Part shown: positions 4,101 to 23,735 of the stretch, piece by piece
Layout of the letters: each line of letters opens with the position of its first letter
Position numbering within the stretch: the stretch's first letter is position 1
NCBI GenBank assembly: GCA_965218465.1
Contig: OZ244623.1
Coordinates: 2,959,549-3,023,548 of the forward strand
Length of the DNA: 64,000 bases
Source: Acidobacteriota bacterium
GTDB taxonomy: Bacteria; Acidobacteriota; UBA6911; RPQK01; G965218465
Direction of reading: 5' to 3'
Made by a program: the position numbers and the translations under genes
The notes under the pieces: generated by a model
The model's database searches: none
What the model was told of the DNA's origin: nothing
The model's input: only the letters and a program-made list of their open reading frames with translations

Positions 4101-5738
4101 TACTCCACACCGGGTGTGGGGCTGATCAGTCCGCCCCCTCATCACGACATCTACTCCATCGAAGATCTCGCCCAGCTGATCTATGACTTGAAGAACGCCA
4201 ACCCATCGGCGCGGGTCAGCGTCAAGCTGGTTTCCGAAATAGGAGTGGGCACCATCGCCGCCGGCGTGGCCAAAGCTCATGCCGACCAGATTCTGATCTC
4301 CGGCGACTCGGGCGGCACCGGAGCCTCTCCCCTCACCAGCATCAAGAACGCAGGCCTTCCCTGGGAACTTGGGTTGGCCGAAACCCATCAGACTTTGGTC
4401 CTCAACGATCTCCGGAGCCGGGTGGTGTTGCAGACTGACGGCGGAATCAAGACAGGCCGGGATGTAGTGATCGCCGGGTTGCTGGGCGCCGAGGAAATCG
4501 GATTTTCTACTGCGCCCCTAATCTCGCTGGGTTGCATCATGATGCGCAAGTGTCACCTCAACACCTGCCCGGTGGGGATTGCGACCCAGGACCCGGTCCT
4601 ACGCCGGCGGTTCAGCGGCAAGCCGGAACATGTCATCAATTATTTGTTCCTGGTTGCTGAGGAAACACGCACGCTCATGGCGCGGCTTGGCTTCCGCAGG
4701 TTTAAGGAGATGATCGGACGGGTCGATGTGATCGATGCCGAGGATGTCATCGGACACTGGAAGGCCGAGGGATTGAACTTGACCCGGATACTGGCTCCGG
4801 CCCAAAAACCGCACGACCGAGTGGCGGTGACCTGCCAGATCGAGCAGGATCATGGCCTGCGCTATTCTCTGGACAACCGCCGACTGATCCGCCAATGCCG
4901 GCCGGCCTTGTTGCGTAGACAGCCCGTGCGCTTGCGCACACCGATTGCCAACACTGACCGTACGGTGGGGACGACGCTCAGTCATCAGGTGGTCAGGACC
5001 TGGGGTGAGCAGGGCTTGCCGGAGGACACTATTCGAATCAAGTTTCACGGCGCCGCCGGCCAAAGTTTCGGCGCTTGGCTGGCCGACGGGGTCACGTTGG
5101 AATTGGAGGGCGAGGCCAACGACTACGTGGGCAAGGGGCTTTCGGGCGGGAAGCTGATCCTCTATCCCCCGGCCGGCAGTGGTTTTCAGGCTCAGGATCA
5201 GATCATCGCCGGCAACGTCGTACTCTATGGCGCCACTTCCGGTCGTGCTTTCTTTCGGGGTCAGGTAGCCGAGCGATTTTGCGTACGCAACAGCGGAGCC
5301 TGGGCGGTGGTCGAGGGAGTGGGAGATCACGGTTGCGAATATATGACGGGAGGCCGTGTAGTCATCCTGGGTCCTACGGGGCGCAATTTTGCCGCTGGAA
5401 TGAGCGGTGGAATCGCCTACGTTTGGGATCGATCTGGCGACTTTCGATCCCGTTGTCATTTAGGGATGGTGGACCTTGAGCCTCTTGTCGCTGCCGACGA
5501 TATCGTCCCTTTGCGCGAGCTGATACGACAGCACCAGTTGCTGACCGGCTCTCCCGTGGCGGCTGCCCTACTGCAGAACTGGTCCCAGAGCCTGAGTCAG
5601 TTCGTCAAAGTGATGCCTAAAGACTACAAACGGGCGTTGGCCCGGCTTCGGGAGTCGGCTGCGACTGATTCGGCAACCAATCCTCGGTTCTGGTCCAGGG
5701 AAGCGGGTACAGGAATGGACGCCGGGCCTCTTAACTAG
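1122..5738 (+). CDS. gltB: Glutamate synthase (GOGAT) large subunit
   Basis: N-terminus MTKRPSQMQGLYDPSYEHDSCGVGLVAH (Ntn-amidotransferase Cys after a short propeptide), FMN/TIM barrel region, GXGXXG-rich C-terminal domain. ~1540 aa. ATG at 1122 preceded by gggag. The track's TTG(1086) is less likely. Confidence 0.93.
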   Translation: MTKRPSQMQGLYDPSYEHDSCGVGLVAHIKGRRSHQIIRDAGAVLVNMQHRSACGCEPDSGDGAGILTALPHEFLAKAATRDMQVDLPPVGRWGAGVVFLPQLAAERRQCKEAVNHIVQQHGQRLLGWRRVPVDPVGAGLGATARSAEPVIQQLFVAAAPGMKPDAFERILYLIRKRASHLLRVEQPLRQGKFFYICSLSTQQLIYKGMLRPVQLMDYFADLRDRHYATHYAIVHSRFSTNTFPSWDRAQPNRMMCHNGEINTLKGNVNWMRARQGVAHSPLFGDHLRHLFPIAEPDCSDSGNFDNVLEFLRMSGRSLPEAVMMMIPEAWQENRLMADDRRAFYEYHSCLMEPWDGPASIIFSDGGYAGAVLDRNGLRPSRYTLTHDDRVILASEVGVLPTIPPNLIKAKGRLQPGRMFLIDFRQGRVVPDREVKTSLARQRPYRFWLDRHGFDLKDLTGPRPTASLDSPTLIARQRAFGYTTETLQFMLLPLVEQRRDPVGSMGNDAALACLSQQPRLIYDYFKQLFAQVTNPAIDSIREQLVMSLECWIGPEGNLLETTEEQASRLRVSHPVLTNQELAAIQAMDQGGWRTKTIDMTFDRRKGSRGLRPALLRICQEAEDAVNDYGLLVLSDRAVSPRRVQVSSLLACGAVHQHLVRRGKRTRVGIVVETGEAREVHHHCLLVGFGADAINPYLAFESLWEARRQGWLAPPEFNDDAQVVKAYRKGVAKGMLKVMAKMGISTLQSYKGAQIFEALGLGDEVIDFCFAGTSSQIQGVDFELLARELLRLHRLGYPKRGDADASLPNPGEYHWRPGGEKRAWDPATIASLQVAARGRDSDSYEEFARRVNDENRDRHTLRGLMGFRSRSNGVSVDLTEVEPASEIVKRFCTGAMSFGSISTETHETLAIAMNRIGGKSNTGEGGEDPARFQPLPNGDSRRSAIKQVASGRFGVTAWYLTNADELQIKIAQGAKPGEGGELPSHKVDQTIARIRYSTPGVGLISPPPHHDIYSIEDLAQLIYDLKNANPSARVSVKLVSEIGVGTIAAGVAKAHADQILISGDSGGTGASPLTSIKNAGLPWELGLAETHQTLVLNDLRSRVVLQTDGGIKTGRDVVIAGLLGAEEIGFSTAPLISLGCIMMRKCHLNTCPVGIATQDPVLRRRFSGKPEHVINYLFLVAEETRTLMARLGFRRFKEMIGRVDVIDAEDVIGHWKAEGLNLTRILAPAQKPHDRVAVTCQIEQDHGLRYSLDNRRLIRQCRPALLRRQPVRLRTPIANTDRTVGTTLSHQVVRTWGEQGLPEDTIRIKFHGAAGQSFGAWLADGVTLELEGEANDYVGKGLSGGKLILYPPAGSGFQAQDQIIAGNVVLYGATSGRAFFRGQVAERFCVRNSGAWAVVEGVGDHGCEYMTGGRVVILGPTGRNFAAGMSGGIAYVWDRSGDFRSRCHLGMVDLEPLVAADDIVPLRELIRQHQLLTGSPVAAALLQNWSQSLSQFVKVMPKDYKRALARLRESAATDSATNPRFWSREAGTGMDAGPLN

Positions 5739-5905
5739 GGTACGGGAAGTGATGTAGCTGAACAGGAAAGTTTCTTGGCCGTGACACGCGGCAGCCGGCC
5801 TGTCACCGATCAGCCGCATTTCCAGCGGGCACACGGCGTGAGTAGCAGGATGTCTTGGCAATCGGCTGCTCACATGCGGCAAACAGTTGCCGAGAACTCG
5901 GGAAG

Positions 5906-7423
5906 ATGGGAAAACCTACTGGTTTCAGGGAATTCGATCGCAAAACCGTCGGTTACCGTGACCCTCTCCAGAGACTGAAAGACTTCGCCGAAATCCTGGC
6001 GCCGACCGATGAAGACCTGCTCCGCACACAGGGTGCGCGTTGCATGGACTGCGGCGTTCCTTTTTGCCAGTCGCACTGCGGATGTCCCCTGGATAATCTG
6101 ATTCCGGAATGGAACGACTTGGTCTATGAGGGTCGGTGGAAAGAGGCCTTGCACCGATTGCACCAAACCAACAATTTCCCCGAATTCACCGGCCGAACTT
6201 GCCCCGCGCCCTGCGAAAGCGCCTGTGTGTTGGGCATTACCGATCCACCAGTCACCATCAAGAACATCGAGAACGCAATTGTTGACCGTGGTTTCGCGGA
6301 AGGCTGGATTCAACCTGATCCTCCCCAACGGCGCACAGGGAAAAGTGTCGCTATTGTCGGCAGTGGACCTTGCGGTCTGGCGGCAGCAGCCCAGTTGAAC
6401 CAGGCTGGACACTGGGTCACCGTCTACGAAAGGGCTGATCGAGTCGGTGGCCTGCTCATGTATGGAATCCCCAACATGAAGCTGGGCAAGGATGTAGTGC
6501 AACGTCGAGTCGACCTGCTGCGCGCGGAAGGCGTGCAATTTGTTACCGGTATGGAGATCGGACTTTCGCGCTTCCCACCGCCGGCCACTGCGAAAAGATC
6601 CCGGGATGTCGAAACAGGAAAGCACCCGGCGCGATTGCTGGAACAGCATGAAGCCTTATTACTTGCCACCGGAGCAACCCGACCATTCGATCCGATCGAG
6701 AATTGCCCAGGACGCCACCTCAAAGGGATCCATCTTGCCATGGACTTCCTGACTCAAACCACCCGGAGTCTACTGGACTCCAAGCTGCGCGCCGGTAGCT
6801 ATTTGTCGGCAAGCAATCGAAAGGTGATCGTGATCGGTGGGGGCGACACGGGAGCCGACTGCATCGGCACTTGCCTGCGTCATGGCTGCTCCGGCATCGT
6901 CAATTTCGAGTTGATGCCAAAGCCTCCGGTGAAACGAAGCAGTAATAATCCGTGGCCTGAGTGGCCGCGTATCTATCGGGTCGAATACTCCCACCAAGAA
7001 GCCCGCCACCGGTTCGGAGAAGATCCCCGGTCTTTTTCCCTTTTGGCCAAGCGCTTCGAGGCCGACGACCAAGGATGGGTGCGAGGTGTGACCACTACAG
7101 AGGTGGATTGGTCCTGTCCCTCTTCAGTAGCGCCTTTCAGCGAGATTGAGGGGAGTGAACGGTTCTGGCCGGCCGATCTGGTCCTTCTTGCAGCCGGCTT
7201 TCTGGGGCCGGAACTTGATTTGACCAGGGGTCTGGGGCTGGAAACGCAGCGTCCTCGTTCCAACTGGGAGACATTTAAGGCTACCGTCCCAGAGTATTCC
7301 ACCAATGTCGAGGGGGTCTTTGCCGCGGGCGATTGCCGCCGCGGGCAATCGCTGGTGGTTTGGGCTATCCAGGAGGGCCGAGGAGCAGCCCGCGCCATCG
7401 ACAAATTTCTCTGCGACCGGTAA
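5906..7423 (+). CDS. gltD: Glutamate synthase small subunit (NADPH-dependent, FAD/[4Fe-4S])
   Basis: [13 protein letters not shown]... Cys clusters ([13 protein letters not shown]...CPAPCESAC), [14 protein letters not shown] dinucleotide fold, directly downstream of gltB. ATG 5906 with gggaag RBS. Confidence 0.93.
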
Positions 7424-7983
7424 ACCGGCTCTCGGCCCCACTTTGGCAACGGTCATAACAAGCGTCCTGACCCAAGGAAGACCGTAGTCGACATCAATGG
7501 GCTTTGAGTAACGCTCCCCAAAAGCCTCAGTAAGAACAACAACCTCGATCTCAGAGGTTTGCTGTGTTCATGCTGCCAATACGCCCTGATAAACAATTTC
7601 AAACTCTTTTCTTGATTCAACAGGATAATAATCGATTGTCAAGTTGGAATCTTGGAGGTTCAAAGATGATGAAATCATTTACTGAATGAGGTTTCCAGGG
7701 TTGGAATTTCTTGACAGTCAAGATAATTTTATTGTAGAGCTTGGAACACTGTTAGAAAGTCAAACACGACTTGTCTCTGAGGGGGAACCGACATTGCCGA
7801 AACTACGCCTGGAACCTAAGATCAAAGCCCCAATTACGGAAACGGAGTATGGTCAATACAAGGATCTGCTTCAAAAAGCGAAAGCGAACGCAGGCGATCA
7901 TCATGTTCTTGTTGATCTGGAGGAAGGTGAAAACTCCACCTATGTGCGCAAGGCGATCAATTTTGTTGCCGGGAAAGAAGGTA
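7169..7983. repeat. Direct repeat copy 1 (~815 bp, ~96-97% identical to 17734..18549): gltD 3' end + intergenic promoter region + 5' end of wHTH-protein gene
   Basis: By-eye alignment: homology begins at ccggccgatctggtcc (7169 / 17734) and ends at gggaaagaaggta (7983 / 18549). Scattered substitutions and one 1-nt indel, so not an assembly duplicate. Confidence 0.8.
7600..7796 (+). promoter_or_regulatory. AT-rich promoter-like region with TTGACA -35-like hexamer (7711-7716) and strong SD (gaggggga) before a TTG start; duplicated at ~18166..18357
   Basis: ttgacagtcaagataattttattgtagagc; gagggggaaccgacaTTG. Low GC relative to surroundings. The -10 element is not clean. Confidence 0.25.
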
Positions 7984-8078
7984 AGGGGACGGTCATGGGA
8001 ACAGGGGGAGCAGTTTGGAGCGAGGATCGGTTCGAGGGGGTCCAATTCCGGTTTGTCGGCCAAACAAGAGCTGCTTGA
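7797..8078 (+). CDS. Truncated/chimeric paralog of the wHTH protein at 18358..18822 (first 62 aa shared, then unrelated tail); probably a non-functional remnant
   Basis: MPKLRLEPKIKAPITETEYGQYKDLLQKAKANAGDHHV.VDLEEGENSTYVRKAINFVAGKEG is identical to copy 2 up to the repeat boundary at 7983, then diverges. TTG start with SD. Confidence 0.3.
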   Translation, partial: PKLRLEPKIKAPITETEYGQYKDLLQKAKANAGDHHVLVDLEEGENSTYVRKAINFVAGKEGKGTVMGTGGAVWSEDRFEGVQFRFVGQTRAA

Positions 8079-8167
8079 TGTGTCGATTCCGAGCGCCATG
8101 CCCCCTGAGTAGCGCTCTTTGATGATTTATCGAATGGCTGGGACGAATTCAGCCAGCGAGGTAGAGT

Positions 8168-8530
8168 ATGACCAAAGCTGACAAGGACCGTTATCTTGCC
8201 GCCGGCGGCACTCTTGCTACCGTAATCAACGCCTTGGGACTTGCGTTCGGGCTCTTTTACATCGATAGGAATCCCCGGCTCGCCGTGTGGATCGTTGTTG
8301 CCAGTATCGTTATTTACGCTGTTTTGAGGCTCGCCTTGGGCTATTGTGACTTCAAATGGCAGCCCTCCGGATCTGCGGATCAGAGCGATGGCGGTGGCCG
8401 TCTCTTAAAAGGGAACGCTGAGGTCAACTTCCCGGACAAGCTCGTTTATGAGGCAGACCTTTCAGGAACTCGACTGGAGATCGATCTGAGGCGGAAGCAT
8501 AACACCGACTTCATTCCGTCGAGCAATTGA
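8168..8530 (+). CDS. Small membrane protein (2 predicted TM helices), unknown function; first gene of island operon
   Basis: MTKADKDRYLAAGGTLATVINALGLAFGLFYIDRNPRLAVWIVVASIVIYAVLRLALGY... Two hydrophobic helices. Tightly followed by the next ORF (23-nt gap). Confidence 0.5.
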   Translation: MTKADKDRYLAAGGTLATVINALGLAFGLFYIDRNPRLAVWIVVASIVIYAVLRLALGYCDFKWQPSGSADQSDGGGRLLKGNAEVNFPDKLVYEADLSGTRLEIDLRRKHNTDFIPSSN

Positions 8531-8552
8531 TAGTCCGCCAGCCAAGAAAGCG

Positions 8553-10220
8553 TTGATGGAAAGCCTGAACCACGACCGCGACTTCGCCAATCTTCTGCTG
8601 ATCGTTCTGAAGGTTCTGCTGGTCATCTTCATCGGGTTGCAGAGTCTGCTCAATCAACTCGGATTGAGTTCCGATGGCATCACCGGTGTCGTCAACGCGA
8701 CGCCCTCCTCGCAGACGAGCCGCGACGGTGCCTTTCAAGTATCGTTTCATACACTCTTCTACTCCCCGGGAGCCGCATACACGGTCATCGACCTCGACAG
8801 CTACGTCACGGTCTGGCGATGTCTCGAGCAAGGTGCTGCTGATGAGTCCTTCTGTCCGATAACCGATGAGGGCTTGCAGCAACTCGAGAGTCTGGGAAAG
8901 GATGACCTCCTGCCCGACTGGCTTCAGGCCCAATGGAGCCAACTCGACGTTACACGAAAGCTGTCCAGGCCTCAACCGAGGGCGCCGGGTTCCGGTCCAA
9001 GAGCCGGGGAGCGATCGGATTCGCTGCACAATGAGACCTTCGATCTGAATGCGATACCGGGAACGTACCGGGTCATTTACCGCGTCACCTTCGAGGCGCC
9101 GCCCGAGAGTCCTAACCCTGACCGCTACTACGCGCACTGGAAGACGTCTGCCCCCGCTACCGAGTCAGGCGAGCAGTCGGATGGAGACACTTGGGAACAC
9201 CCAACGGGGTTTGAGATCTTCTACGACAGCAAGGATCCGGGGGAGTGGCAACTCCCTCCATTGGAAATCATTCAGGGGCGTTCGGCGCGGATGTCCGCGC
9301 AGCTTGATGGCTTTCGACTCGAGGCAGGAGGGGCTCGCGTCAACGATGGGAAGGCTCGAATCGGGCTTTCGAAGAGAGGCCGGGCCAACTGGGCCTTCGT
9401 CTCGGACTTCAGAAACATCACTTTGGGAAGAGACATTCAACACGACGTACTCATCACATCCAAGATCACTGAGATCGGGGCCAATTTTTTCAAGGTGGAA
9501 GATGATCCCAATCCGATCTTGATCGGGACCGCCGACACTGCGGACAATAGGGAAGTTTATGCAGAGTTCCTGAGATTCGACGATGAGAGCGGAACCTTCA
9601 TCGAGGAAGAATTTCGGGAGATGAACGTTGGCGATGCGGTCTACTATGAATTGAGGCGGGGTTCGTCGCAGCGCGTGGCGCGATTAGTGCGCTTCGGTCA
9701 GAAGGCTGTCCCGGCCACCTTGCCAATCGTCGTCCGCCGAAACCTGCCACCCCGGGGCATCTATAATCCGGCGCCTGGGATTGCGGCGTTCCACTTCCCG
9801 GACGATGCCTATAACCACCCGCTCACCGAGGGTGGAGCGTTGGTCCATTACTTCAATCTCAATTTCCGTATCATCGATCCCGACGGCGCCAATCCTTCAG
9901 GATCCCCCAGTATCCATATTCCAAGAAGCGGATTCGAGAAGGTCGGGACTTGGCCGGAGCACTTCAGTCTCGAAGAGTATAAGAATGACACCCTACTCAC
10001 ATTTACTCCAGATCGTCTCTACGAAGGCGCAGATCAAGAGCAGCGTCTATTAGAGCTTCAACTCAAGGTCTCGGACGAGTGGAACAGGTCGTCGCTGGCT
10101 ACGACCATGGTACTGAGAATCCGGTACCGCACATTGGACACCCTCTACGACGCCATTCGACAGATTCAGGACTTGGAGCTAAAGGTTCTGAGTGGTACCG
10201 GATCGGGAGGCTTGCAGTGA
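8553..10220 (+). CDS. Membrane-anchored (N-terminal TM) 555-aa protein with large extracytoplasmic domain; no recognisable family
   Basis: N-terminal LLLIVLKVLLVIFIGLQSLL anchor. Long ORF with coding-like composition. Stop overlaps the next start (GTGATG at 10218-10222). Confidence 0.5.
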   Translation: MMESLNHDRDFANLLLIVLKVLLVIFIGLQSLLNQLGLSSDGITGVVNATPSSQTSRDGAFQVSFHTLFYSPGAAYTVIDLDSYVTVWRCLEQGAADESFCPITDEGLQQLESLGKDDLLPDWLQAQWSQLDVTRKLSRPQPRAPGSGPRAGERSDSLHNETFDLNAIPGTYRVIYRVTFEAPPESPNPDRYYAHWKTSAPATESGEQSDGDTWEHPTGFEIFYDSKDPGEWQLPPLEIIQGRSARMSAQLDGFRLEAGGARVNDGKARIGLSKRGRANWAFVSDFRNITLGRDIQHDVLITSKITEIGANFFKVEDDPNPILIGTADTADNREVYAEFLRFDDESGTFIEEEFREMNVGDAVYYELRRGSSQRVARLVRFGQKAVPATLPIVVRRNLPPRGIYNPAPGIAAFHFPDDAYNHPLTEGGALVHYFNLNFRIIDPDGANPSGSPSIHIPRSGFEKVGTWPEHFSLEEYKNDTLLTFTPDRLYEGADQEQRLLELQLKVSDEWNRSSLATTMVLRIRYRTLDTLYDAIRQIQDLELKVLSGTGSGGLQ

Positions 10221-11248
10221 TGTCAAGAGCGGTGCTGTGGAGTAAAACTCAAGTCGTGTTGTTGATTGCGATGGTTTTCTTCTCGGTCTTTGCCTCGCCC
10301 TGTCTCGGACAAGAGAGTTGCCCCCCGATCGGAAACAGATCCAGGGTGGTCTCTGACCTCAGTTTCGTCGAGACGATGGCCGAGGGAGAGTTCCTCAGGC
10401 TCGTAGGCAGACGGCTGGTCCGCGATAATATGGCGGATTGTGGAGTCAACCCGAGAGATCTGGACAGTTTCATCCTGCTGGTTTCTCCGCCACTCCAGGG
10501 TGCTGAGCGTGGGAACAACAGCTCTTTTCTCCGCGATATCGAGTTGCAACTCTACTTGGTCAGATCTCGTGAAGAGAAGCGGCCCGATGGCACCAGCGGA
10601 ATCGCCACTCAAGAGATAGCTCTTCCTCAGGCTCCCACGGCATTGACAGAAATATTGGCGGGGTCAGAGCTGGTGGAGGCTACGCTCAACAGGATTGAGT
10701 CGCTTACCATGGTCTTCATTCCTCGCATCTTCGTCGGAGAGCCCATCCGGCGGCTGAGCTCTCCCCAGATCGGAAACGGTCCTGGGACGCCCACTCCAGG
10801 CGACACCGAAGAGCCCACGATCTATGTTTCGCCCGTTGTCTTGGTCCCCACGCGAGCGCTCCGGAGCCGCACTGAGAATCCGCCGGTGTTGCTCAGTACT
10901 TGGATGACCAACCTGGAACGGCTCGGAATCAAGTACCTCAAAGCGATGTTGGACGACTTCGAGAAATCGTCTGGACAGAAGCTCTTGACGCGTCGGACTC
11001 TGATGTTGTTCAGAGGTTGGCAGCCTGTGGAGGGACCCATCGGTTTGGGAAGGAGCGAACAGCCCGGGCTACCCTACACCTGGACCGAGTTAGTCAATCT
11101 TGAGCAGGCCGTTGGAGCAAGAGAGACCGGCCAGTACCTTCAGCGTTTCCAAGACTTCTGGAAAGCGGTCGAGAAAAACATCGATACTTTCCGTCAAGAG
11201 GACCAGGACAAACTCAAGGCTATTTTTGATCAAGAGAAGTCAAACTAG
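10220..11248 (+). CDS. Secreted hypothetical protein (signal peptide MSRAVLWSKTQVVLLIAMVFFSVFASPCLG)
   Basis: ATG overlaps the upstream stop. Classic Sec signal peptide. The track ORF 10079.. is extended upstream by alternate-start logic. Confidence 0.5.
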   Translation: MSRAVLWSKTQVVLLIAMVFFSVFASPCLGQESCPPIGNRSRVVSDLSFVETMAEGEFLRLVGRRLVRDNMADCGVNPRDLDSFILLVSPPLQGAERGNNSSFLRDIELQLYLVRSREEKRPDGTSGIATQEIALPQAPTALTEILAGSELVEATLNRIESLTMVFIPRIFVGEPIRRLSSPQIGNGPGTPTPGDTEEPTIYVSPVVLVPTRALRSRTENPPVLLSTWMTNLERLGIKYLKAMLDDFEKSSGQKLLTRRTLMLFRGWQPVEGPIGLGRSEQPGLPYTWTELVNLEQAVGARETGQYLQRFQDFWKAVEKNIDTFRQEDQDKLKAIFDQEKSN

Positions 11249-11269
11249 ATCGGGATCGCTCTGTCCGTG

Positions 11270-12859
11270 ATGCTAACCTCAATCTATCAGCACAAGACTC
11301 ATAACCGTAGGGAGGTGGACGGTTCACGTTCCAGAAGAATCGTCGGGTTGCTCTTGTTGCTGTTAACGGTGCTGACGGGAGAGGGGCTGTCACAGTGCAC
11401 ACGAGACCGGATTGCCGAAGCGGCCCGCAAAGTCGGTGCGCTCGAATCATCGACTCTCGACATTTTCGGGGCAGGCCGCTTCACCGTCGCCGACGAGGGT
11501 AGCGCTCGCGCCTTCCTGGTGGAGGCCAACCATCTGGCGGCGCGTCTCAGAGAGGTCCTCGGAATCGTCACCCCTCCCTCGAGGGACGAGGTGGTTCCCA
11601 ATGAAGCGGCCGGGCGAGGGTTCAATGCAAGTGAAAAACAAGGACTACTCTGCCTGCAAGACACACTGCAGAAATTTTATGAAAAGGTCGGGGAGGGCCT
11701 GTTGAGGGCGGAAGATCATCTCGCCCGGGCATCGATCCTATTGCATCACAGCGTCATTTTTCCGGAAACCGACTTTCCGCGAACTCCCGGCGCCTTGCTC
11801 GGTCGTGCACTGCGCGACTATGAATCCGTCTACACGGCCGCGCTCCAGGTTTTAGAAGATAGAGGTGGAAACTATGCAACCTATGGCTTGGCCGTCAAGC
11901 TCGGAATCGACCTCAACCGCCCGGCGCCTGCTTTCGAGCATCTCGACGAATTCGTCAAGCTTGCGGTTGCGACCTCGATTCAGTGGCCCGATCACGGCTC
12001 TCAGATCGGAACTGTCCTGAAACAGGTTTTGTGCGCCGGCTACCACCTCTATCCCGGCCGGCGCGATACCATCGAACGCGCCGACCAGATCTTGATTCGC
12101 CTGGATCGGGGCAATCTAGCCGTCTCCGCCCCGGTTTTCCGATTCGTCGGGCGCGTCAACAAGATTCTGCGGCTCTCCGAGATATCGTTCGAGAAAGTCG
12201 GTTCGCCTTGCGAAAGCGGGTCTCCGGGTCGGCTTCTCCGGTTTGGAGAACCGATGGTCGAACTTACCGCCCCGGAGGTGCTGCTGGAAAGGCTGGCAGA
12301 AGCCGAGGAGGAGCTGAGCTCTTCTCTCAGTCTGGTGTCGGAGAGGGGCCTGGGATACTCTTCTTCTTCCCTCAAACGCTGGATGCCGTTCGAGTCATAT
12401 AGCGAGCTTCTTTACCGGATTGCTGAGACGCTCGCACCATCCTATAGCGCGGATAGCGAGACCTGGGAACTCAGGAGTGCCCTCAGGACGCGATCTTGCA
12501 TGGCGCTGATTCGCGGGCTCCAATCGATCGGGATCACAGTCGAGTCTGAGTCGAGGGAACGTCTTCGACGAACCCTCCTTGAGCGAATCGACGAACATGT
12601 CGGCGATCTCTTTGCCCGACTATGGTTCAAGAAAGCAGCCGAGTTCGCGGCTCACTTTTCCCAGCAGAACTATCGAATGTTGCTCCAGGAAAGCCAGTGG
12701 AAACGGCTCAACACTCTTCTAGCTCGGGCCTATTTCATGGACTGTCAGAATGCGAACGCGCTCAGGCGTCTCCGTTCCTCGGACACCACCATAACCAAGC
12801 TGCGAGAGTTCAAAACAACCTATCATGAGAACGGCCTCGACGTCAGCTGCCCGGACTGA
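11270..12859 (+). CDS. Secreted, predominantly alpha-helical hypothetical protein (~529 aa)
   Basis: Hydrophobic N-terminus (RIVGLLLLLLTVLTGEG). 19-nt gap after the previous gene. ATG at 11270; the track's 11267 is a GTG. Confidence 0.45.
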   Translation: MLTSIYQHKTHNRREVDGSRSRRIVGLLLLLLTVLTGEGLSQCTRDRIAEAARKVGALESSTLDIFGAGRFTVADEGSARAFLVEANHLAARLREVLGIVTPPSRDEVVPNEAAGRGFNASEKQGLLCLQDTLQKFYEKVGEGLLRAEDHLARASILLHHSVIFPETDFPRTPGALLGRALRDYESVYTAALQVLEDRGGNYATYGLAVKLGIDLNRPAPAFEHLDEFVKLAVATSIQWPDHGSQIGTVLKQVLCAGYHLYPGRRDTIERADQILIRLDRGNLAVSAPVFRFVGRVNKILRLSEISFEKVGSPCESGSPGRLLRFGEPMVELTAPEVLLERLAEAEEELSSSLSLVSERGLGYSSSSLKRWMPFESYSELLYRIAETLAPSYSADSETWELRSALRTRSCMALIRGLQSIGITVESESRERLRRTLLERIDEHVGDLFARLWFKKAAEFAAHFSQQNYRMLLQESQWKRLNTLLARAYFMDCQNANALRRLRSSDTTITKLREFKTTYHENGLDVSCPD

Positions 12860-12910
12860 AATGGATCATGCAGCTCGAAGAACTCACGATGTGACCCTGG
12901 GAGCGCAACT

Positions 12911-15900
12911 ATGACTCGGAAATTTTTCCGGATTTGGCTGGCAGTCATAGTCTCTGTGGGCGTGATCTCCAACGTGAGCTCTTCGCCCGTCCTTCCAGCG
13001 ACCCAACCGCCAGCAACCGTCGCCCAACAAGTCTCGAGCCGGAGCCAAGTTCAGGTATTGGACCGACTCGTTCGGGAGTATGCGAGCCTACCCGTTTTCG
13101 ACTTGACCCTTGCTCATCGCCACCAGAGCTTCGAACTTCAGTACGACCGGGCCTACTCGATCGCCCGGGAGATGCAGCAACTGGCAAACACAGCCGAGCA
13201 GTCTTTTCTGAGAAGCTACCCCACGACTCTGAACCGGCAGGAAATGGAAGCGAACGTCAGAATCCATGTTCTGATGGCCATCGTCGGCGCTCGGCTCGGC
13301 TATGAGGAGTTTTTCGAAAGACACCTGGAAGTCGCTTTGGATAGAATTCGGCGCCACTATGGCTACCGCGGTCGTGACGCACGGCTGGAGTTGAAAAAAA
13401 TCGCTGATGGGGGGTCAAGTATCGAAAACTCCTCCCTTGCGGACACGTTCTGTCGCCAGGCGAGTACGATTCTCTCGCAGCCCACCGTGGGGCATCCCCG
13501 CAATCCGCCTTCCTGCCTTTCTCCGGACCCGGAGCCGAGTTTCTTCGAGCGCTTGCTGAGAAATGCTGGCGATCCCAAAGAGCTGGTCTTCGACCGCAGC
13601 GCGAACATAACCAATCTCTCCGGGTTCGCCATCCGGGTAGCCAATTACGCCACGGCCTCGCCACAGTCGATTCTTTTCGCCAACGCGCTGACGAAGGTGC
13701 TTGCCGACCCTCTGGTCACGAACTGGTTCATCCGTTTCTACCGGGATCAGGCTGTCGACGTTCCGACGGTAGACAGGCGCATCCGTTCGGATGTTCCGTC
13801 GTCATCGGATCGGCAACAACCTCCTCCGCTCTATGCACAGCAAGGTCGGGTCAATATTCAATCGAGCGACTACTTCGTCGTCGACCGGGGTGATCGGCAG
13901 AAAATCGAGTGGCTAGGCCATGTCCGGAACCTTTTTGAGCTGAAGCAGCAGATCTCTATCAAAGTTCGGATACCGGTTGGTGAATATCTGGTTTATCCGA
14001 CTAGACAGGCCTTTCCAACAGAGTTCTCACTCAAGCCGAACCTGATCGTCACGACCAGTTCCTTCGAGCCCATGCCGGGGTTTGACCTCTATTTGAGTCC
14101 CTCGGAATCGAGTGTCAGCGTCGTCCCGAAACAGAAACCTGGTTCAATCAAGGCTTCTCTGTTCAAACCGGACTTCAAGCTCCTTCGTTTCGATGTTGGA
14201 ATTGACGACAGTTCAAGGGACATCAGTGGAGGCGTCGAGCTCCGACTATTTCACCGCATCAATCGCTACCTCGCGGTTCAAACTCAATTGGAAGGCGTTT
14301 TTCTCAAACACCACGACAACATCAACCCGCTCAACCCCCGGATTTTCCGCCGCGACTCTATTCCGTTTGAGAATTTCACAAGCCGTGAGGTCCAGTTCGA
14401 TATCGGTCCCGTCATGCGTTTCGACCGTTGGCAACTGGCGGTCATGGAGAGCTTTCGCCTGGTTAATCGCAGTGGCTGGGATTCTTCGGGAGAGATCGGC
14501 CAGTTCTTCTTCAACCTCGGTTATCTGATCCCTGCGCGGGGTCAGGTCGGCCTTTACGCAACACGTGCCAACAAACAAGAGTCGGTCGTGAATCGGGTGC
14601 GCCTCGAAACGACTCTCGTTGAAGAGATCTATCTCAGGGTCACAGATCAGATTGGAGTGAACTTCAATATTCACTTGGGAAAGGGTTTTTCCGTGGAAGG
14701 GGCGTTTGGCCATCTCGACACGATTCGGCGGAAAAATGCCTGGGGTGGGGTCGTGCGCACTTACCTGCCACCGATCTGGAAAAGGGTTCAACTGACGACC
14801 GAGTTCGGCTTCAACGAAGGCTTTGTTGCTCAGAGTAACAACTGGCGGTTCGGCGTAGGCCTTCGTTTTGGAGGATGGGGCCGGGCCGGGGGGCCGGCAC
14901 CTTCGACCGTGCTCGGCCGCTCGGCCGGGCCTGAACCGGTATTCGTACCCCGTGTGCGCTATGAGACTCTGACGCGAGTCGTGCGAGATGGGAATCGCAG
15001 GCCAGTGGCCGATGCCGGGCCCGATCAATTGGACTTGGTTCCGTCCGAACGGTTGCCGGGCGGAGATCTCGGGAGGAAGGTCGTTATCGACGGAAGCAGT
15101 TCCTTTGATCCGGATGGCGACGAGATCAGCTACGAGTGGACTAAATTGGACGACTGCCCTGATTCCATCACGTTCGAGGATTTACAGGGAACCGGATCGG
15201 TGGGACCTGCGTCGGCCGCCATCTCCTTCGCGATCAACAATGGTGAGAGCTGTAGTGTCCAGTTGATCGTCGAAGATAGCCTGGGGTTGAAGGGCGATCC
15301 CGACATCGTCCGGGTGTCGGTCCAACGGGGGCCTCTCCCGGTCATCGTCAGTTTCACCGCCCAACCGGCGACGATCCCAATGGGCGCGGAGTCGACGTTG
15401 AGCTGGGAAACCCGCGATGCGGAAACGGTTGAAATCACTAATGTTTCGAACTCGAGTACGCTTCCGGTCAATGGAAGTGTCTCCGTAACGCCCTCGGTCA
15501 CGACCACTTACGTCCTTTCGGCCTGCAACGCGGCGAGAGAGTGTGCGACAGCGCAGACCACCGTGGTCGTCAAGGCAGATTTGCCGGTCATCGTCAGTTT
15601 CACCGCCCAACCGGCGACGATCCCAATGGGCGCGGAGTCGACGTTGAGCTGGGAAACCCGCGATGCGGAAACGGTTGAAATCACTAATGTTTCGAACTCG
15701 AGTACGCTTCCGGTCAATGGAAGTGTCTCCGTAACGCCCTCGGTCACGACCACTTACGTCCTTTCGGCCTGCAACGCGGCGAGAGAGTGTGCGACAGCGC
15801 AGACCACCGTGGTCGTCAAGGCAGATTTGCCGGTCATCGTCAGTTTCACCGCCCAACCGGCGACGATCCCAATGGGCGCGGAGTCGACGTTGAGCTGGGA

Positions 15901-17095
15901 AACCCGCGATGCGGAAACGGTTGAAATCACTAATGTTTCGAACTCGAGTACGCTTCCGGTCAATGGAAGTGTCTCCGTAACGCCCTCGGTCACGACCACT
16001 TACGTCCTTTCGGCCTGCAACGCGGCGAGAGAGTGTGCGACAGCGCAGACCACCGTGGTCGTCAAGGCAGATTTGCCGGTCATCGTCAGTTTCACCGCCC
16101 AACCGGCGACGATCCCAATGGGCGCGGAGTCGACGTTGAGCTGGGAAACCCGCGATGCGGAAACGGTTGAAATCACTAATGTTTCGAACTCGAGTACGCT
16201 TCCGGTCAATGGAAGTGTCTCCGTAACGCCCTCGGTCACGACCACTTACGTCCTTTCGGCCTGCAACGCGGCGAGAGAGTGTGCGACAGCGCAGACCACC
16301 GTGGTCGTCAAGGCAGATTTGCCGGTCATCGTCAGTTTCACCGCCCAACCGGCGACGATCCGAGTGGGCGCGGAGTCGACGTTGAGCTGGGAGGTGCAAA
16401 ACGCGACCCGAGTGGACATCACCAACAGCCAAGACTTTGTACCATCCTTGCCCAGCACCATCCCGCTAATCTCCAGCGGAGTTGTGATGCCTTCGGCGAC
16501 CACGACCTACACGCTGACCGCGTCCAATGATGACGGAGCGACCGCATCGGCCCAGTTGACCGTGCTGGTTCTACCCGTTCTTCCGCAGATTCTGAGTTTC
16601 GCTGCGACTCCAACACAGATCCTGACCGGGGAGTGCACGACTTTGAGTTGGGAGACAGAGGGAGCAGATTCGGTCTTCCTTACGAATTTGACCTCCGGTG
16701 ATACTCCAATCGCCGTCAACCCGGACGACAGCGTGATCGTTTGTCCCACTCAAACGACGGCTTTCACTCTCACAGCGACGAATTCCGCAGATGAGGTCTC
16801 GACGGCGCAGGTGACGGTCTATGTCCAAGAAGACTTGCCTGTGATCGTCAGCTTTACCGCCAAACCTACTGACATCTTCCAAGGTAAGAGTAGTGAGTTG
16901 TGCTGGGAGGTGGAAAATGTAGAAAGAGTGTCCATTACCAATATCCCCAACGGCGACAACCTGCCCGCCATGGGATGCAAGACCGTCCAGCCAACGGGAA
17001 CGACGACCTATACGCTGACCGCAGTGGGTAATGGGGGCGTCGTCCAAGCCACGGCGACGGTGGTGGTGAGATCCACACCCTCGTTCCCATTCTAG
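12911..17095 (+). CDS. Giant (1394 aa) secreted repeat protein: signal peptide, predicted outer-membrane beta-barrel-like segment, PKD-like module, 7 Ig-like ~82-aa modules; candidate inverse-autotransporter-like adhesin
   Basis: Signal peptide MTRKFFRIWLAVIVSVGVISNVSS. Amphipathic alternating-hydrophobic stretch ~14100-14900 ending ...NNWRFGVGLRFGGW (aromatic-terminated, typical of a last beta-strand). VIDGSSSFDPDGDEISYEW PKD-like motif. Seven modules of pattern P.I.SF.A.P..I..G...TL.WE......V.I.N.......G......P..TTTY.L.A.N......A...V.V. Confidence 0.65.
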   Translation: MTRKFFRIWLAVIVSVGVISNVSSSPVLPATQPPATVAQQVSSRSQVQVLDRLVREYASLPVFDLTLAHRHQSFELQYDRAYSIAREMQQLANTAEQSFLRSYPTTLNRQEMEANVRIHVLMAIVGARLGYEEFFERHLEVALDRIRRHYGYRGRDARLELKKIADGGSSIENSSLADTFCRQASTILSQPTVGHPRNPPSCLSPDPEPSFFERLLRNAGDPKELVFDRSANITNLSGFAIRVANYATASPQSILFANALTKVLADPLVTNWFIRFYRDQAVDVPTVDRRIRSDVPSSSDRQQPPPLYAQQGRVNIQSSDYFVVDRGDRQKIEWLGHVRNLFELKQQISIKVRIPVGEYLVYPTRQAFPTEFSLKPNLIVTTSSFEPMPGFDLYLSPSESSVSVVPKQKPGSIKASLFKPDFKLLRFDVGIDDSSRDISGGVELRLFHRINRYLAVQTQLEGVFLKHHDNINPLNPRIFRRDSIPFENFTSREVQFDIGPVMRFDRWQLAVMESFRLVNRSGWDSSGEIGQFFFNLGYLIPARGQVGLYATRANKQESVVNRVRLETTLVEEIYLRVTDQIGVNFNIHLGKGFSVEGAFGHLDTIRRKNAWGGVVRTYLPPIWKRVQLTTEFGFNEGFVAQSNNWRFGVGLRFGGWGRAGGPAPSTVLGRSAGPEPVFVPRVRYETLTRVVRDGNRRPVADAGPDQLDLVPSERLPGGDLGRKVVIDGSSSFDPDGDEISYEWTKLDDCPDSITFEDLQGTGSVGPASAAISFAINNGESCSVQLIVEDSLGLKGDPDIVRVSVQRGPLPVIVSFTAQPATIPMGAESTLSWETRDAETVEITNVSNSSTLPVNGSVSVTPSVTTTYVLSACNAARECATAQTTVVVKADLPVIVSFTAQPATIPMGAESTLSWETRDAETVEITNVSNSSTLPVNGSVSVTPSVTTTYVLSACNAARECATAQTTVVVKADLPVIVSFTAQPATIPMGAESTLSWETRDAETVEITNVSNSSTLPVNGSVSVTPSVTTTYVLSACNAARECATAQTTVVVKADLPVIVSFTAQPATIPMGAESTLSWETRDAETVEITNVSNSSTLPVNGSVSVTPSVTTTYVLSACNAARECATAQTTVVVKADLPVIVSFTAQPATIRVGAESTLSWEVQNATRVDITNSQDFVPSLPSTIPLISSGVVMPSATTTYTLTASNDDGATASAQLTVLVLPVLPQILSFAATPTQILTGECTTLSWETEGADSVFLTNLTSGDTPIAVNPDDSVIVCPTQTTAFTLTATNSADEVSTAQVTVYVQEDLPVIVSFTAKPTDIFQGKSSELCWEVENVERVSITNIPNGDNLPAMGCKTVQPTGTTTYTLTAVGNGGVVQATATVVVRSTPSFPF
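15338..16358. repeat. Perfect tandem DNA repeat, 246-bp unit x4 (15338, 15584, 15830, 16076) plus identical first 37 nt of a 5th unit; inside the giant-protein gene
   Basis: Unit start ccggtcatcgtcagtttcacc recurs at an exact 246-nt period. Three minus-strand ORFs (15508..15753, 15754..15999, 16000..16245) have identical translations, confirming 100% identity. Diverged copies continue to ~17090. Confidence 0.9.
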
Positions 17096-17296
17096 TCTAG
17101 ATCGCATCCGGGAAGTCGGGTTTTTTGAGATTGATAGAGTGAGGGAAGGTGCGAGAAGCTGCAAAAAGGCAGAGCGGATGGGGCAGCTGGCAAGAGTTTC
17201 AACTCCGGTGAGAGCCGATACTGGTTTGTGAAGAGACTGGTCCCTGACAGTAGTTGCTGGTGCTGAATCCATCGGCGCTTACAGCAGCAGGCGTGC

Positions 17297-17733
17297 CAGG
17301 ACCAGCAAGTTGAAGCTGGTGACCGACAGGTGCACATACTGCTGAAAGTGCTGCCAGCCTTTCCAGGGGCAGCGTTTGACTGCGAAGACTCGCTTGAGCA
17401 TCGAGATGCAGCCTTCGATGCCGGCCCGGAAACGTCGCAGTTGACGGTAGACCCAGCTGGAGCGCACCATCTGGTGGACCTTCAGGCGGCCTTTCTTGGC
17501 GAAGGCGACTCTTGAATGCCTTGCTCCTTGGCCCACTGCAGATTGGCGCGGGTGGCAAAGCCGCCGTCGAAGCTGGCCTGTCGAGGCCAGCCGCGGCCGT
17601 AGAGGTCAAAACTGGCGCTGGAGCAAGGGCTGGAGCTGAGACTGATCAGCCGGGTTGCCTGCCACGACCTCACAGTCCAGAATCAGTCTGGAGGCTCCGC
17701 AGGTTAAAAACAGCTTGTGGCCAAAGACTGTTT
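17297..17733 (-). mobile_element. IS remnant (DDE_Tnp_1-type transposase, IS5/IS1182/IS4-like), 5'-truncated and frameshifted
   Basis: Minus-strand frames give ...[35 protein letters not shown] (G.K.H..VD....P....T.ANVHD motif), SFDGGFATRANLQWAKEQGI (DxGYxSxxNxxxLxxxGI motif) and C-terminal GIEGCISMLKRVFAVKRCPWKGWQ...NLLVLARLL, in three different frames. Abuts the gltD-fragment repeat at 17733/17734. Confidence 0.6.
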
Positions 17734-17992
17734 TCCGGCCGATCTGGTCCTTCTTGCAGCCGGCTTTCTGGGGCCGGAACTTGATTTGACCAGGGGTCTG
17801 GGGCTGGAAACGCAGCGTCCTCGTTCCAACTGGGAGACATTTAGGGCTACCGTCCCAGAGTATTCCACCAATGTCGAGGGGGTCTTTGCCGCGGGCGATT
17901 GCCGCCGCGGGCAATCGCTGGTGGTTTGGGCTATCCAGGAGGGCCGAGGAGCAGCCCGCGCCATCGACAAATTTCTCTGCGACCGGTAAACC
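17734..17992 (+). pseudogene. gltD 3'-terminal fragment (last ~86 codons) within direct repeat copy 2
   Basis: [83 protein letters not shown] is near-identical to the gltD C-terminus. No 5' part present. Confidence 0.8.
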
Positions 17993-18549
17993 GGCTCTCG
18001 GCCCCACTTTGGCAACGGTCATAAAAAGCGTCCTGACCCAAGGAAGACCGTAGTCGACATCAATGGGCTTTGAGTAACGCTCCCCAAAAGCCTCAGTAAG
18101 AACAACAGCATCGATCTCAGAGGTTTGCTGTGTTCATGCTGCCAATACGCCCTGATAAACAATTTCAAACTCTTTTCTTGATTCAACAGGATAATAATCG
18201 ATTGTCAACTTGGAATCTTGGAGGTTCAACGATGATGAGATCATTTACTGAATGAGGTTTCCAGGTTGGAATTTCTTGACAGTCAAGATAATTTTATTGT
18301 AGAGCTTGGAACACTGTTAAAAAGTCAATCACGACTGTCTCTGAGGAGGAACCGACATTGCCGAAACTACGCCTGGAACCTAAGATCAAAGCCCCAATTA
18401 CGGAAACGGAGTATGGTCAATACAAGGATCTGCTTCAAAAAGCGAAAGCGAACGCAGGTGATCATCATGTTTTTGTTGATCTGGAGGAAGGTGAAAACTC
18501 TACCTATGTGCGGAAGGCGATCAATTTTGTTGCCGGGAAAGAAGGTATC
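17734..18549. repeat. Direct repeat copy 2 (see 7169..7983)
   Basis: See copy 1. Confidence 0.8.
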
Positions 18550-18822
18550 TCTCTCAGATTGACGTTGCGCAGGGGGCAGAATACCTTTTCCCTGCGCTTC
18601 GGCAAATCCGATAGGTCACCGGTACGGCGATCGGCTCGGGAGGCTCGCGACCTGATCATTGACGCTCTCAAGAAGGCCGGCACCCAACTGCAACGCTCCC
18701 AGATTCTCAAGCATACTGGACTGAGTGCCGGAACTTGGAACATCCGAATTCGCGAACTGCTACGGGACGGCTTGGTGAAGAAAGAAGGTAAGGGCCGGGA
18801 TACCAGCTACACGGTAGATTGA
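18358..18822 (+). CDS. Winged-helix DNA-binding protein (154 aa), unknown regulon
   Basis: C-terminus SAREARDLIIDALKKAGTQLQRSQILKHTGLSAGTWNIRIRELLRDGLVKKEGKGRDTSYTV resembles a wHTH (MarR/PadR-like recognition helix + wing). TTG start with gaggagg SD. Confidence 0.5.
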   Translation: MPKLRLEPKIKAPITETEYGQYKDLLQKAKANAGDHHVFVDLEEGENSTYVRKAINFVAGKEGISLRLTLRRGQNTFSLRFGKSDRSPVRRSAREARDLIIDALKKAGTQLQRSQILKHTGLSAGTWNIRIRELLRDGLVKKEGKGRDTSYTVD

Positions 18823-18831
18823 AGTCAGGCT

Positions 18832-18848
18832 CAATGCTGCAGGCATTG
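18832..18848 (+). terminator. Hairpin CAATGC-tgcag-GCATTG 10 nt after the wHTH gene stop
   Basis: 6-bp perfect inverted repeat followed by a GC-rich stretch. No U-run. Confidence 0.2.
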
Positions 18849-19258
18849 AGGGGCGCCGGGGAGCCCCGCCCGGCACCAATCGATCCATTGCACTTGAAAG
18901 AAGTGTTGGTTGTCTCTTCCCCTTCTTCGTCAACAAGCGGGCTCAACTCGCCCCGATTGGCTCTTGGACTGGACTAGCCAAACTCTTGGACCTCGCCGGT
19001 GAACCCATTTCATCGGCAACCCCGTAAGGCTGAAGGGCTCTTGCAATTAAGCTGCCGAGTGCATGCCGCAGATCCGACCGGATCCCGGAGGTTCCTGACA
19101 CAGGTGACCGCTCATCCTTGGGCTGTCTCTTGGGGCCTGTTGTCAATTGGGGACGAGGCTTGCCGCTTCCCACCAGCCTTTTCCGCCCTAAGGAATGTAG
19201 GAGACAAAGACAGTTTTGTAGACCCGGCATTCCACCCGCTCGGCAGAAAACACTGAAA

Positions 19259-19738
19259 ATGAAAACTCGAGCCGCAGTCCATTCCGACCTGGAAGCAATT
19301 GCCCGCCTGCAAGCCGTCACAAGAGTGACGACGCCTTACTACGGCCGCTCGACCCACCAAGACCTTGAATATGAACGACTGTACCCGCGTGTGGCGGGCT
19401 ACTTGTCCGGTACTTATCACCCCAGCTTTGCACTCGATGATCGGTCGATGTTTGTTGCCCTGGATCAAAGCCAAATTATCGGTTTCAGCGCCGGTCACCG
19501 CTCAACCCGAATGGGCTGTCTGGCTGAGCTGCAATGGACATTTGTTCTTCCTGAGCGGCAACGGCAGGGAATCGGTGCACCGTTGTTGTCTCTGTTGCAG
19601 GCTTGGTTTAGATCGCACCAAGCAACGCGTGTCATCGTCGATGCTGCTCCCAATAATCCGTAGCGGGCGTTTTACATCAAGCACGGAGCGATACCACTTG
19701 ACCGGTATTGGCTCTACTGGCCCGACATCAGCCAGTGT
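19259..19738 (+). pseudogene. GNAT-family N-acetyltransferase interrupted by an in-frame TAG (19661-19663) inside the conserved C-terminal motif; reading frame continues to TAA at 19738
   Basis: MKTRAAVHSDLEAIARL...RQRQGIGAPLLSLLQAWFRSH (motif A Q/RxxGxG), then ...DAAPNNP*RAFYIKHGAIPLDRYWLYW. The stop falls just before the GNAT FY.K.GF-like segment. Confidence 0.4.
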
Positions 19739-19944
19739 CGAATCTAAATCTTGTAGTTGGGTATTGAGTAAGACCGGCCTGGGAAGACTGACCAACGGCG
19801 GCTCGGTGCATCCTCTCCCGAGATAATTGTGAGGACTGGGCTGCGTTTTTTGGAAAAGGGAAACGTTCAGCGTCGAAGATTTTGCGCTGATGGTCTGTTA
19901 CTATTTTTTCCATTAACATCTTCAATCTTGTGTGATCTGAATTC

Positions 19945-23313: not shown

Positions 23314-23518
23314 GCCTTTCTCCGGGCTCCATTGAGAGCCGACCAACCTCCAAGTGGAAGCCGAGCCATCAGTCGTCCCCTGGAGGGAGGCGAACCTGCG
23401 GAAGAGCGCCAGAGGCTTGATTGGGAGTGACCCTTGTCCCCGCAGATGACTTGTCGGGGGGAAGCGACGCAAGCGGGCGATGACTCGAATCGAGTCGCAC
23501 AATAACTGCCAGTCCAAG

Positions 23519-23683
23519 TGTGCCAGGACCAGCAAGTTGAAGTTGGTGACTGACAGAGGCACATACTGCCGAAAGTGCTGCCAGCCTTTCCAGCGACAGC
23601 GTTTGACTGCGAAGACTCGCTCGAGCATCGAGATGCAGTCTTCGGTGTCGGCCCGAAAACGGCATAGCTGTCGGTTACCCCCA
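23519..23683 (-). mobile_element. Second IS remnant: ~165 bp of the same transposase 3' end as at 17297..17460
   Basis: gccaggaccagcaagttgaag(c/t)tggtgac(c/t)gacag...cgtttgactgcgaagactcgct(t/c)gagcatcgagatgcag aligns to 17297-17460. Encodes MLERVFAVKRCRWKGWQHFRQYVPLSVTNFNLLVLAHL. Confidence 0.55.
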
Positions 23684-23735
23684 CTGCCTCGACATCATCG
23701 CGACCGGAACAGGTGACACTGAGCATCACGATGAA

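Follow-up and report, generated by a model that had tools for sequence, protein, structure and literature searches.

A plasmid-related gene module inserted between two copies of an 815-bp chromosomal segment in an Acidobacteriota bacterium

In a 64-kb stretch of DNA from an Acidobacteriota bacterium (contig OZ244623.1), the gene gltD, which encodes the small subunit of glutamate synthase, was separated from the gene for a winged helix-turn-helix (wHTH) protein by 9,751 bp of inserted DNA (7984-17734) lying between direct repeats. The whole stretch is referred to as the window, and coordinates are positions in it unless a contig is named. Comparison of contigs with and without the insert indicated, with a probability that we put at about 0.85, that there was one insertion of approximately 9.75 kb of plasmid-related DNA into an uninterrupted gltD-wHTH region, that 815 bp of resident sequence was duplicated with both genes left intact, and that the insertion is still polymorphic. 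The event is of an ordinary kind that is unusually well documented here, and its most interesting aspect is the uncharacterized cargo.

The direct repeats and the empty site

The insert was bracketed by two copies, in the same orientation, of a segment consisting of the last 255 bp of gltD, a 370-bp AT-rich intergenic region, and the first 63 codons of the wHTH gene. A repeat search and local alignment gave 98.3% identity between the copies over 813 aligned positions, with 14 substitutions and two 1-nt indels. An earlier note on this DNA had described direct repeats of about 815 bp around a 9.75-kb insert, and these were present, at 7169-7983 and 17735-18547. The duplication itself therefore stood, but the bounds given for the second copy (17734..18549) and the count of 62 wHTH codons were superseded by 17735-18547 and 63 codons, and the estimate of 96-97% identity with one indel was not borne out. 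The features at the two ends of the insert were as follows.

5906..7423, + strand: gltD, intact, with Pfam Fer4_20 and Pyr_redox_2; its last 255 bp lie inside copy 1
7169..7983, + strand: repeat copy 1, 815 bp, comprising the gltD 3' end, the intergenic region, and wHTH codons 1-63
7794..8078, + strand: chimeric 94-codon open reading frame (ORF), 63 wHTH codons fused to 31 codons of inserted DNA
17735..18547, + strand: repeat copy 2, 813 bp, comprising a gltD stub (17735-17989), the intergenic region, and the start of the intact wHTH gene
18358..18822, + strand: intact wHTH gene, 154 aa, TTG start, with an N-terminal alpha/beta domain and a C-terminal winged helix

As the earlier note had stated, and as translations of the ORFs confirmed, copy 1 completes gltD and yields a chimeric wHTH ORF, and copy 2 does the reverse, with a 255-bp gltD stub followed by the whole wHTH gene. 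An identical 505-aa gltD product was called in four other contigs, and a protein identical to the 94-aa chimeric product was called in a contig from the Joint Genome Institute (JGI; P0009/L098). The chimeric ORF is probably non-functional, because the wHTH protein is cut inside its N-terminal domain (at residue 63 in an AlphaFold2 [AF2] model). This model, for which six homologues served as the alignment, had a predicted local distance difference test score (pLDDT) of 78.6 and consisted of an alpha/beta domain (residues 16-81) and a winged helix (residues 93-153). Its Foldseek matches were tandem winged-helix proteins, AspA, and ArsR-type regulators, and the C-terminal half of the protein had weak Pfam matches to DIP2311-like_C and HTH_24. 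The TTG start at 18358 could be fixed because all six database homologues start with MPKLR. More distant homologues of the wHTH protein (50-60% identity) did not have gltD as a neighbor. Scans of the duplicated intergenic region for sigma-70 promoters and terminators gave no more sites than shuffled sequences.

The best gltD matches among 185,579 species-representative genomes were to Pirellulales metagenome-assembled genomes, at 64-68% amino acid identity, and offered no useful synteny; on these matches, the organism would be a planctomycete without any close relative among sequenced species. The locus was recovered in long metagenome contigs through exact-protein look-ups. Three of these were filled: S50 (a circular 3.19-Mb contig, 50x), S11 (93 kb, 11x, from the same sample as S50), and S13 (3.34 Mb, from a second sample). 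All three were 99.3-99.9% identical to the window and contained both copies and both joints; the left joint was also found in the JGI contig, which is 1 kb long. Two further contigs were empty. L004 (10.6 kb, ~10x), from the sample that yielded S50 and S11, aligned to 2525-7983 and 17735-23722 through a single copy of the segment. L096 (32.6 kb), from a third sample and 96.7% identical to the window, had the same arrangement and the same boundaries. The empty site that the earlier note had proposed to look for in relatives, gltD followed directly by the intact wHTH gene, was thus found in both contigs, with boundaries exactly as predicted.

Misassembly is very unlikely, because both junctions recurred in independent assemblies. 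Some suspicion of an artificial duplication or an artificial empty contig might arise since the loci come from metagenome assemblies, and since L004 is short, has low depth, and ends in an insertion sequence (IS) remnant. However, the two joints occurred in four independent long contigs (that of the window and three others) from two samples, and the left joint was present in the JGI data set as well. Furthermore, the copies differed at fixed diagnostic sites, and L004 and L096 came from different samples and had private single-nucleotide polymorphisms (SNPs) throughout. The chance that the arrangement is an artefact is therefore close to negligible.

In its flanks, L004 was nested within the diversity of the filled strains. 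No fixed differences between filled and empty sites were found in 3612-7458; they clustered in the intergenic region, within the wHTH gene, and over the 600 bp immediately to its right. Such a pattern agrees with an insertion polymorphism that is old and segregates in a population that recombines.

On the left flank, all 25 fixed differences between the filled contigs and L004 clustered at 2621-3611, within gltB, and at 20 of these L004 had the L096 allele; the stretch resembles a tract recombined in from a lineage farther away. The window itself was a mosaic, its left part being nearest to S50 and its right part to S13.

The inserted DNA and its plasmid-borne relatives

A foreign origin of the inserted DNA is supported, as judged from sequence comparison, by its 93% nucleotide identity to a gene module on plasmid-like contigs and by its outlying tetranucleotide usage. 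The L1 distance of the insert in tetranucleotide usage was 0.20, compared to 0.12 ± 0.011 for equal-size chunks of the host. The composition check did not uphold the claim of the earlier note that the insert is lower in GC: GC content was 0.569, compared to 0.565 for the window, and GC at third codon positions was the same, with only tetranucleotide usage standing out. The dips in GC along the window corresponded to the AT-rich intergenic part of the repeat itself. The note's description of the insert as coding for membrane and secreted proteins of no assigned family and ending in an IS remnant was accurate, as it contained five such ORFs and a fragment of a probable ISNCY-family element.

7984..8072, no strand: 89-bp filler that separates copy 1 from the plasmid-homologous module, 100% identical among all filled strains
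8073..17089, + strand: five-gene module, 93% identical in nucleotide sequence to modules on plasmid-like contigs (blastn)
17096..17287, no strand: 192-bp spacer after the large cargo gene, with a terminator-like hairpin (17106-17121) and a T run
17288..17734, - strand: probable ISNCY-family IS remnant, the last ~146 of ~444 transposase codons, frameshifted (six-frame translation)
23515..23699, - strand: another ISNCY remnant, shorter than the first, with 86% identity to it and the same orientation; L004 and L096 carry it too

The 554-aa protein encoded by the second gene of the module had only three clusters of relatives among 5.8 billion proteins. One cluster (90% identity) was located on four contigs of 21-197 kb (L091-L094) from two further samples, on which all five genes were present with their order kept. 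The genes surrounding the module on these contigs encoded a MobC/NikA-like protein, a relaxase fragment, PIN/RHH toxin-antitoxin pairs, a resolvase, a tyrosine integrase, and IS21, IS6, and IS256 elements, and L093 also carried RepA_C, TrbL, and VirB8. The contigs were linear, and their plasmid nature was read from this gene content; their GC content was 0.57-0.58. Homology between the window and the plasmid copies took in the last 45 bp of the gene that precedes the module on the plasmids and ended at the stop codon of the large gene, and gene by gene the amino acid identity was 85-93%. In a third relative, on an unrelated contig (L095), all five genes were ordered alike at ~30-45% amino acid identity in a different context.

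The IS remnant matched positions 299-444 of the 444 positions of NCBIfam NF033593 (E value, 4e-43) and also matched Pfam DDE_Tnp_1. Its score of 147.6 bits, against a cut-off of 325, was obtained with only positions 299-444 remaining, and the IS1182 and IS5 models scored far lower. The remnant was cut at an internal position of the transposase, at base 17734, exactly where copy 2 starts; its outer end, at ~17288, was taken from the start of similarity to the second remnant. The second remnant is resident, because it was present in both empty-site contigs too. Homologous recombination between the two remnants was considered as the driver of the event and rejected, as they are 86% identical over only ~185 bp and the second one is found in empty alleles. 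A 14-nt stretch common to the copy-1 joint and the wHTH 3' end (AAAGAAGGTAAGGG) had suggested an origin by internal deletion, but this was dropped because the sequence beyond did not align.

The boundaries also did not fit an IS or a composite transposon: there was a single piece of an IS, with none at the left end, and the duplication was 815 bp, not 2-14 bp. No match to a recombinase family was found among the insert ORFs, and Rfam and tRNA scans of the window returned nothing. No att-like feature was apparent, and no core could be defined; the gltD 3' end is duplicated, but the 815-bp repeat continues into the next gene.

The inserted and the resident units were alike in layout, each with a repeat, genes, and an ISNCY remnant in the same orientation. 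The second remnant is adjoined by a fragment of an RHS-repeat protein gene (23736-24212), where contig L004 ends.

Divergence of the copies and routes of insertion

All copies and the empty alleles were aligned, with L096 as the outgroup. Seven changes were private to copy 1 (7459, 7542, 7673, 7698, 7755, 7783, and 7908) and seven to copy 2 (7278, 7664, 7764, 7771, 7895, 7937, and 7949), and at four sites (7708, 7779, 7884, and 7923) both copies had a common state against both empty alleles. None of the 14 copy-specific derived alleles was present in L004, and none was present in L096. The alleles indicate that the empty state is ancestral and that no recent recombinational deletion produced it, because a crossover between copy 1 and copy 2 would leave copy-1 alleles on the left and copy-2 alleles on the right, and L004 has neither.

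If, on the other hand, the filled arrangement were ancestral, the empty contigs would represent chromosomes from which 10.6 kb had popped out by recombination between the copies. Direct repeats of 815 bp with 98% identity can recombine, exchange between the copies was indeed seen in S13 (see below), and the nesting of the L004 flanks within filled-strain diversity speaks for such a history. The lack of all seven plus seven copy-specific alleles in both L004 and L096 largely refutes it, however, as do the four states that both empty alleles share against both copies and the plasmid-related, compositionally atypical cargo. We regard this order of events as highly improbable.

The private changes of the two copies were interleaved along the segment (9 runs, compared to 8.9 expected), and a rank comparison was not significant. 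No donor/recipient mosaic was detected across the copies, in that no crossover point rebuilt an empty-type allele (minimum, 10 differences). The copies thus look as if they were identical at origin and then diverged in place; the four shared derived states and the interleaving of the private differences both point to near identity when they formed. The private changes respected function: no private change of copy 1 lay in its gltD portion, and the three that altered wHTH codons in copy 2 were all synonymous. Gene conversion between the copies is shown by strain S13, whose copy 2 carried copy-1 alleles over its left two-thirds (7169 to 7698).

Taken together, these observations establish the following sequence of events, with the probability given at the outset. 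In an ancestor of the sampled strains, the five-gene surface module, which is also found on conjugative-plasmid-like DNA, and the adjacent 3' third of an ISNCY element were inserted once. The insert came to be flanked at either end by 815 bp of resident sequence, with gltD kept by copy 1 and the wHTH gene by copy 2. Both novel joints are illegitimate, one within wHTH codons 63-64 and the other between an internal position of the IS and an internal position of gltD. After the insertion, the copies diverged in place, with seven private changes each, and they still exchange sequence by gene conversion. For the entry of the DNA, a homology-assisted route is favored, although we give it only about even odds. 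It might have taken either of two forms, in both of which the duplicated segment would come from the same lineage: a circle with the 815-bp segment beside the cargo could have entered by one homologous crossover, or a linear fragment could have entered by one homologous and one illegitimate join.

The first form is Campbell-type integration, a single crossover of circular DNA that carries a chromosomal fragment, as in suicide-vector insertions or the re-integration of F' and R' plasmids. The locus is like such integrants in having direct repeats of one chromosomal segment around foreign DNA, in retaining each interrupted gene as one truncated and one intact copy, in the existence of a single-copy empty site, and in repeats that stay recombinogenic, as the gene conversion indicates. 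It is different in that the searches turned up no donor circle with the segment, neither replicon nor plasmid backbone is present in the insert, the duplicated segment abuts an internally truncated IS, and there is no donor/recipient mosaic, although the last would be expected only from a diverged donor copy. Taken alone, the strict Campbell form is plausible but less likely than not. The earlier note had proposed either Campbell integration or a duplication followed by insertion; the insertion of foreign DNA into an empty site held up, whereas Campbell integration was not demonstrated, given that neither donor nor mosaic was found, and the alternatives were not separated.

The second form would be homology-facilitated illegitimate recombination, in which, according to a review, one end is homologous and the other illegitimate (PMC3240628). 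This process would explain an arbitrary internal IS joint beside perfectly resident sequence, and it would also account for the internally cut IS and the restored wHTH gene. It usually deletes or replaces recipient DNA, whereas here DNA was duplicated, which would require a prior simple insertion into the wHTH gene. A further difference is that neither competence nor conjugation is known for the host organism.

Several points weigh against the proposed history and its homology-assisted entry. At 7544 and 7643, copy 2 grouped with L004 against copy 1 and L096, and therefore any simple model needs recombination or homoplasy. No donor with the 815-bp segment was found, and the plasmid-like relatives had no copy of it within ±10 kb. 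Exact look-ups with the 120-aa cargo protein and a 63-aa ORF of the IS remnant, in which few assemblies were represented, returned only the same chromosomal contigs, such that the joint between the IS and copy 2, or the same 120-aa allele, was seen on no other contig. Scans of JGI metagenomes with the 554-aa protein and with a 24-mer of the 89-bp filler also returned nothing. No source was found for two pieces of the insert: the filler had no match in plasmid-like loci (including the 229-aa gene of the plasmids) or in either IS remnant, and the 192-bp spacer had none in the plasmid-like contigs. A circle of 10.6 kb would contain no replication genes, and the Campbell route therefore needs extra steps, either capture of the segment or later loss of a plasmid backbone. 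Finally, a one-step illegitimate duplicative insertion would predict just as well that the copies started out identical.

In such a one-step event, a linear plasmid fragment would have been end-joined or template-switched between chromosomal ends 815 bp apart, at staggered breaks or on sister chromatids at a fork, with no homologous crossover. The fragment would have been broken within the gene preceding the module at one end and within the IS at the other, and both joints and the duplication would have been made together. This scheme requires the fewest separate events and agrees with two illegitimate joints inside an ORF or an IS, with the failure to find a donor with the segment, and with the lack of a recombinase or att feature. 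It fits the SNPs equally well, given copies that look identical at origin, private changes that are interleaved, and four derived sites in common. On the other hand, a stagger of 815 bp is far beyond what is usual for end-joining insertions, and two breaks plus capture of a fragment would be required. We consider it a possible but rather doubtful route.

Site-specific integration is known to produce a comparable geometry. In the e14 cryptic prophage of Escherichia coli, icd runs on into the prophage, at whose far end lies icdC, a C-terminal pseudogene (PMC13626634). As in e14, the 3' end of a housekeeping gene was found here at both ends of the element, with the gene functional and a C-terminal stub on the far side. 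An attP carrying the gltD 3' end and neighboring DNA, followed by deletion of the recombinase and the rest of the element, could in principle yield this arrangement, and the plasmid-like relatives encode a resolvase beside the module and a tyrosine integrase a few kilobases away. However, e14 relies on a site-specific integrase that it encodes itself and brings a divergent version of the gene end, whereas the insert has no recombinase gene and its flanking copies look identical at origin. In addition, the duplicated stretch also takes in the intergenic region and the beginning of the wHTH gene, the tRNA scan was empty, and one joint lies inside an IS rather than at an att boundary. The copies also showed no block pattern of element versus host sequence, with a minimum of 10 differences to an empty-type attB. 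Thus, it seems very unlikely that the insert arose in this manner.

The locus provides a clean natural case of gene capture from plasmid to chromosome in an uncultured lineage whose mobile elements are little studied. Filled and empty alleles were found in one sample, both joints were placed at single-nucleotide resolution, and the cargo has a known plasmid-borne relative. The long target duplication let foreign DNA into a tight gene pair with neither gene inactivated, and the duplicated halves then decay in complementary fashion. Current understanding is not overturned by these results; their value lies in a well-resolved case and in a pointer to an uncharacterized protein family.

The cargo genes and other features of the window

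The cargo is a conserved, fast-evolving five-gene surface module with strain-variable perfect repeats and no annotation. All five ORFs were on the same strand, with a hydrophobic segment at every N terminus, and none of the five proteins had a Pfam, NCBIfam, or PADLOC assignment.

8168..8530, + strand: cargo gene 1, 120 aa, two hydrophobic helices
8556..10220, + strand: cargo gene 2, 554 aa, N-terminal membrane anchor
10220..11248, + strand: cargo gene 3, 342 aa, signal peptide
11270..12859, + strand: cargo gene 4, 529 aa, N-terminal hydrophobic segment, helix-rich
12911..17095, + strand: cargo gene 5, 1394-aa surface protein
15338..16392, + strand: tandem repeat inside cargo gene 5, 4.3 copies of a 246-nt (82-aa) unit, 99-100% identical

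The protein encoded by cargo gene 5 consisted, in order, of a signal peptide, a helical N-terminal region, a conserved domain of ~220 aa (residues ~490-710), a PKD-like domain, and the array of 82-aa immunoglobulin (Ig)-like repeats. Its length was 1394, 1230, or 286 plus 843 aa among the strains and 1065-1303 aa on the plasmids, and the copy number of the 246-nt unit varied between otherwise near-identical strains and between plasmid copies. This variation suggests that an exposed surface protein is changing length rapidly.

The split form was that of strain S11, which is short of one G in a GGG run (window 13743; L001 ~17838). Either the cargo is decaying in this one strain, or the assembly, at 11x, is wrong here. 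In a comparison of the chromosomal copies with the plasmid copies on L091, the ratios of non-synonymous to synonymous changes were 18:5 for 8168-8530 and 43:26 for 10220-11248, counts that would place the small cargo proteins under relaxed or diversifying selection.

When residues 1-730 of the large protein were used as the query of an exhaustive search, 148 representative relatives were returned, 94 of them with E values of <1e-10, mostly via the ~220-aa domain. In many of these homologues, the domain sits between an N-terminal OmpA peptidoglycan-binding domain and a K319L-like PKD or Big_9 domain. It was represented in ~150 protein clusters, for which there is no Pfam or NCBIfam model, and it may be an undescribed outer-membrane anchoring domain. 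A profile of the domain matched no solved structure, and no match to the intimin barrel family was obtained in Pfam. An AF2 prediction for the first 770 residues, run without an alignment, had a pLDDT of 33 and was unusable, and a crude periodicity scan found only six to eight segments of alternating hydrophobicity, as in strands.

Inverse autotransporters, the intimins and invasins, belong to type Ve secretion. The large cargo protein may be likened to them in the order of its predicted parts: a signal peptide, a putative periplasmic N-terminal region (with an OmpA peptidoglycan-binding domain in many homologues), a putatively strand-rich domain of ~220 aa, and C-terminal tandem Ig/PKD-like repeats. 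It differs in having neither an intimin barrel nor a match to a solved structure by sequence, and in being accompanied by four conserved accessory genes, which intimins lack. The likeness, seen at the level of predicted domain order, would therefore be a resemblance only.

A more speculative proposal, which we advance with little confidence, is that the module could be an undescribed, self-contained surface display system, made up of an outer-membrane protein whose barrel-like domain would be of a new family, arranged as in inverse autotransporters with a hypervariable Ig-repeat passenger, and four dedicated membrane or secreted partners. Such a system would reside on conjugative plasmids of Planctomycetota and could be captured by chromosomes, and the duplicated promoter region of the wHTH gene may drive the module.

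Three minor features lie outside the insert. In S13, a full-length DDE_Tnp_1_4 (IS1380-like) transposase gene was present upstream of the dCache gene to the left of gltB (L003 2275-3690); it was found in neither the window, S50, nor S11 and is therefore a strain-specific IS insertion. At 24149-24199, at the end of the RHS-fragment ORF, a 16-nt unit (GGAGGTCCGGAGAAGG) was repeated 3.2 times with no mismatches. Between 20500 and 23500, AT skew was strongly negative (to -0.34) over the gene for a 1122-aa Rce1-like multi-pass membrane protein, which is probably an effect of codon or amino acid composition.

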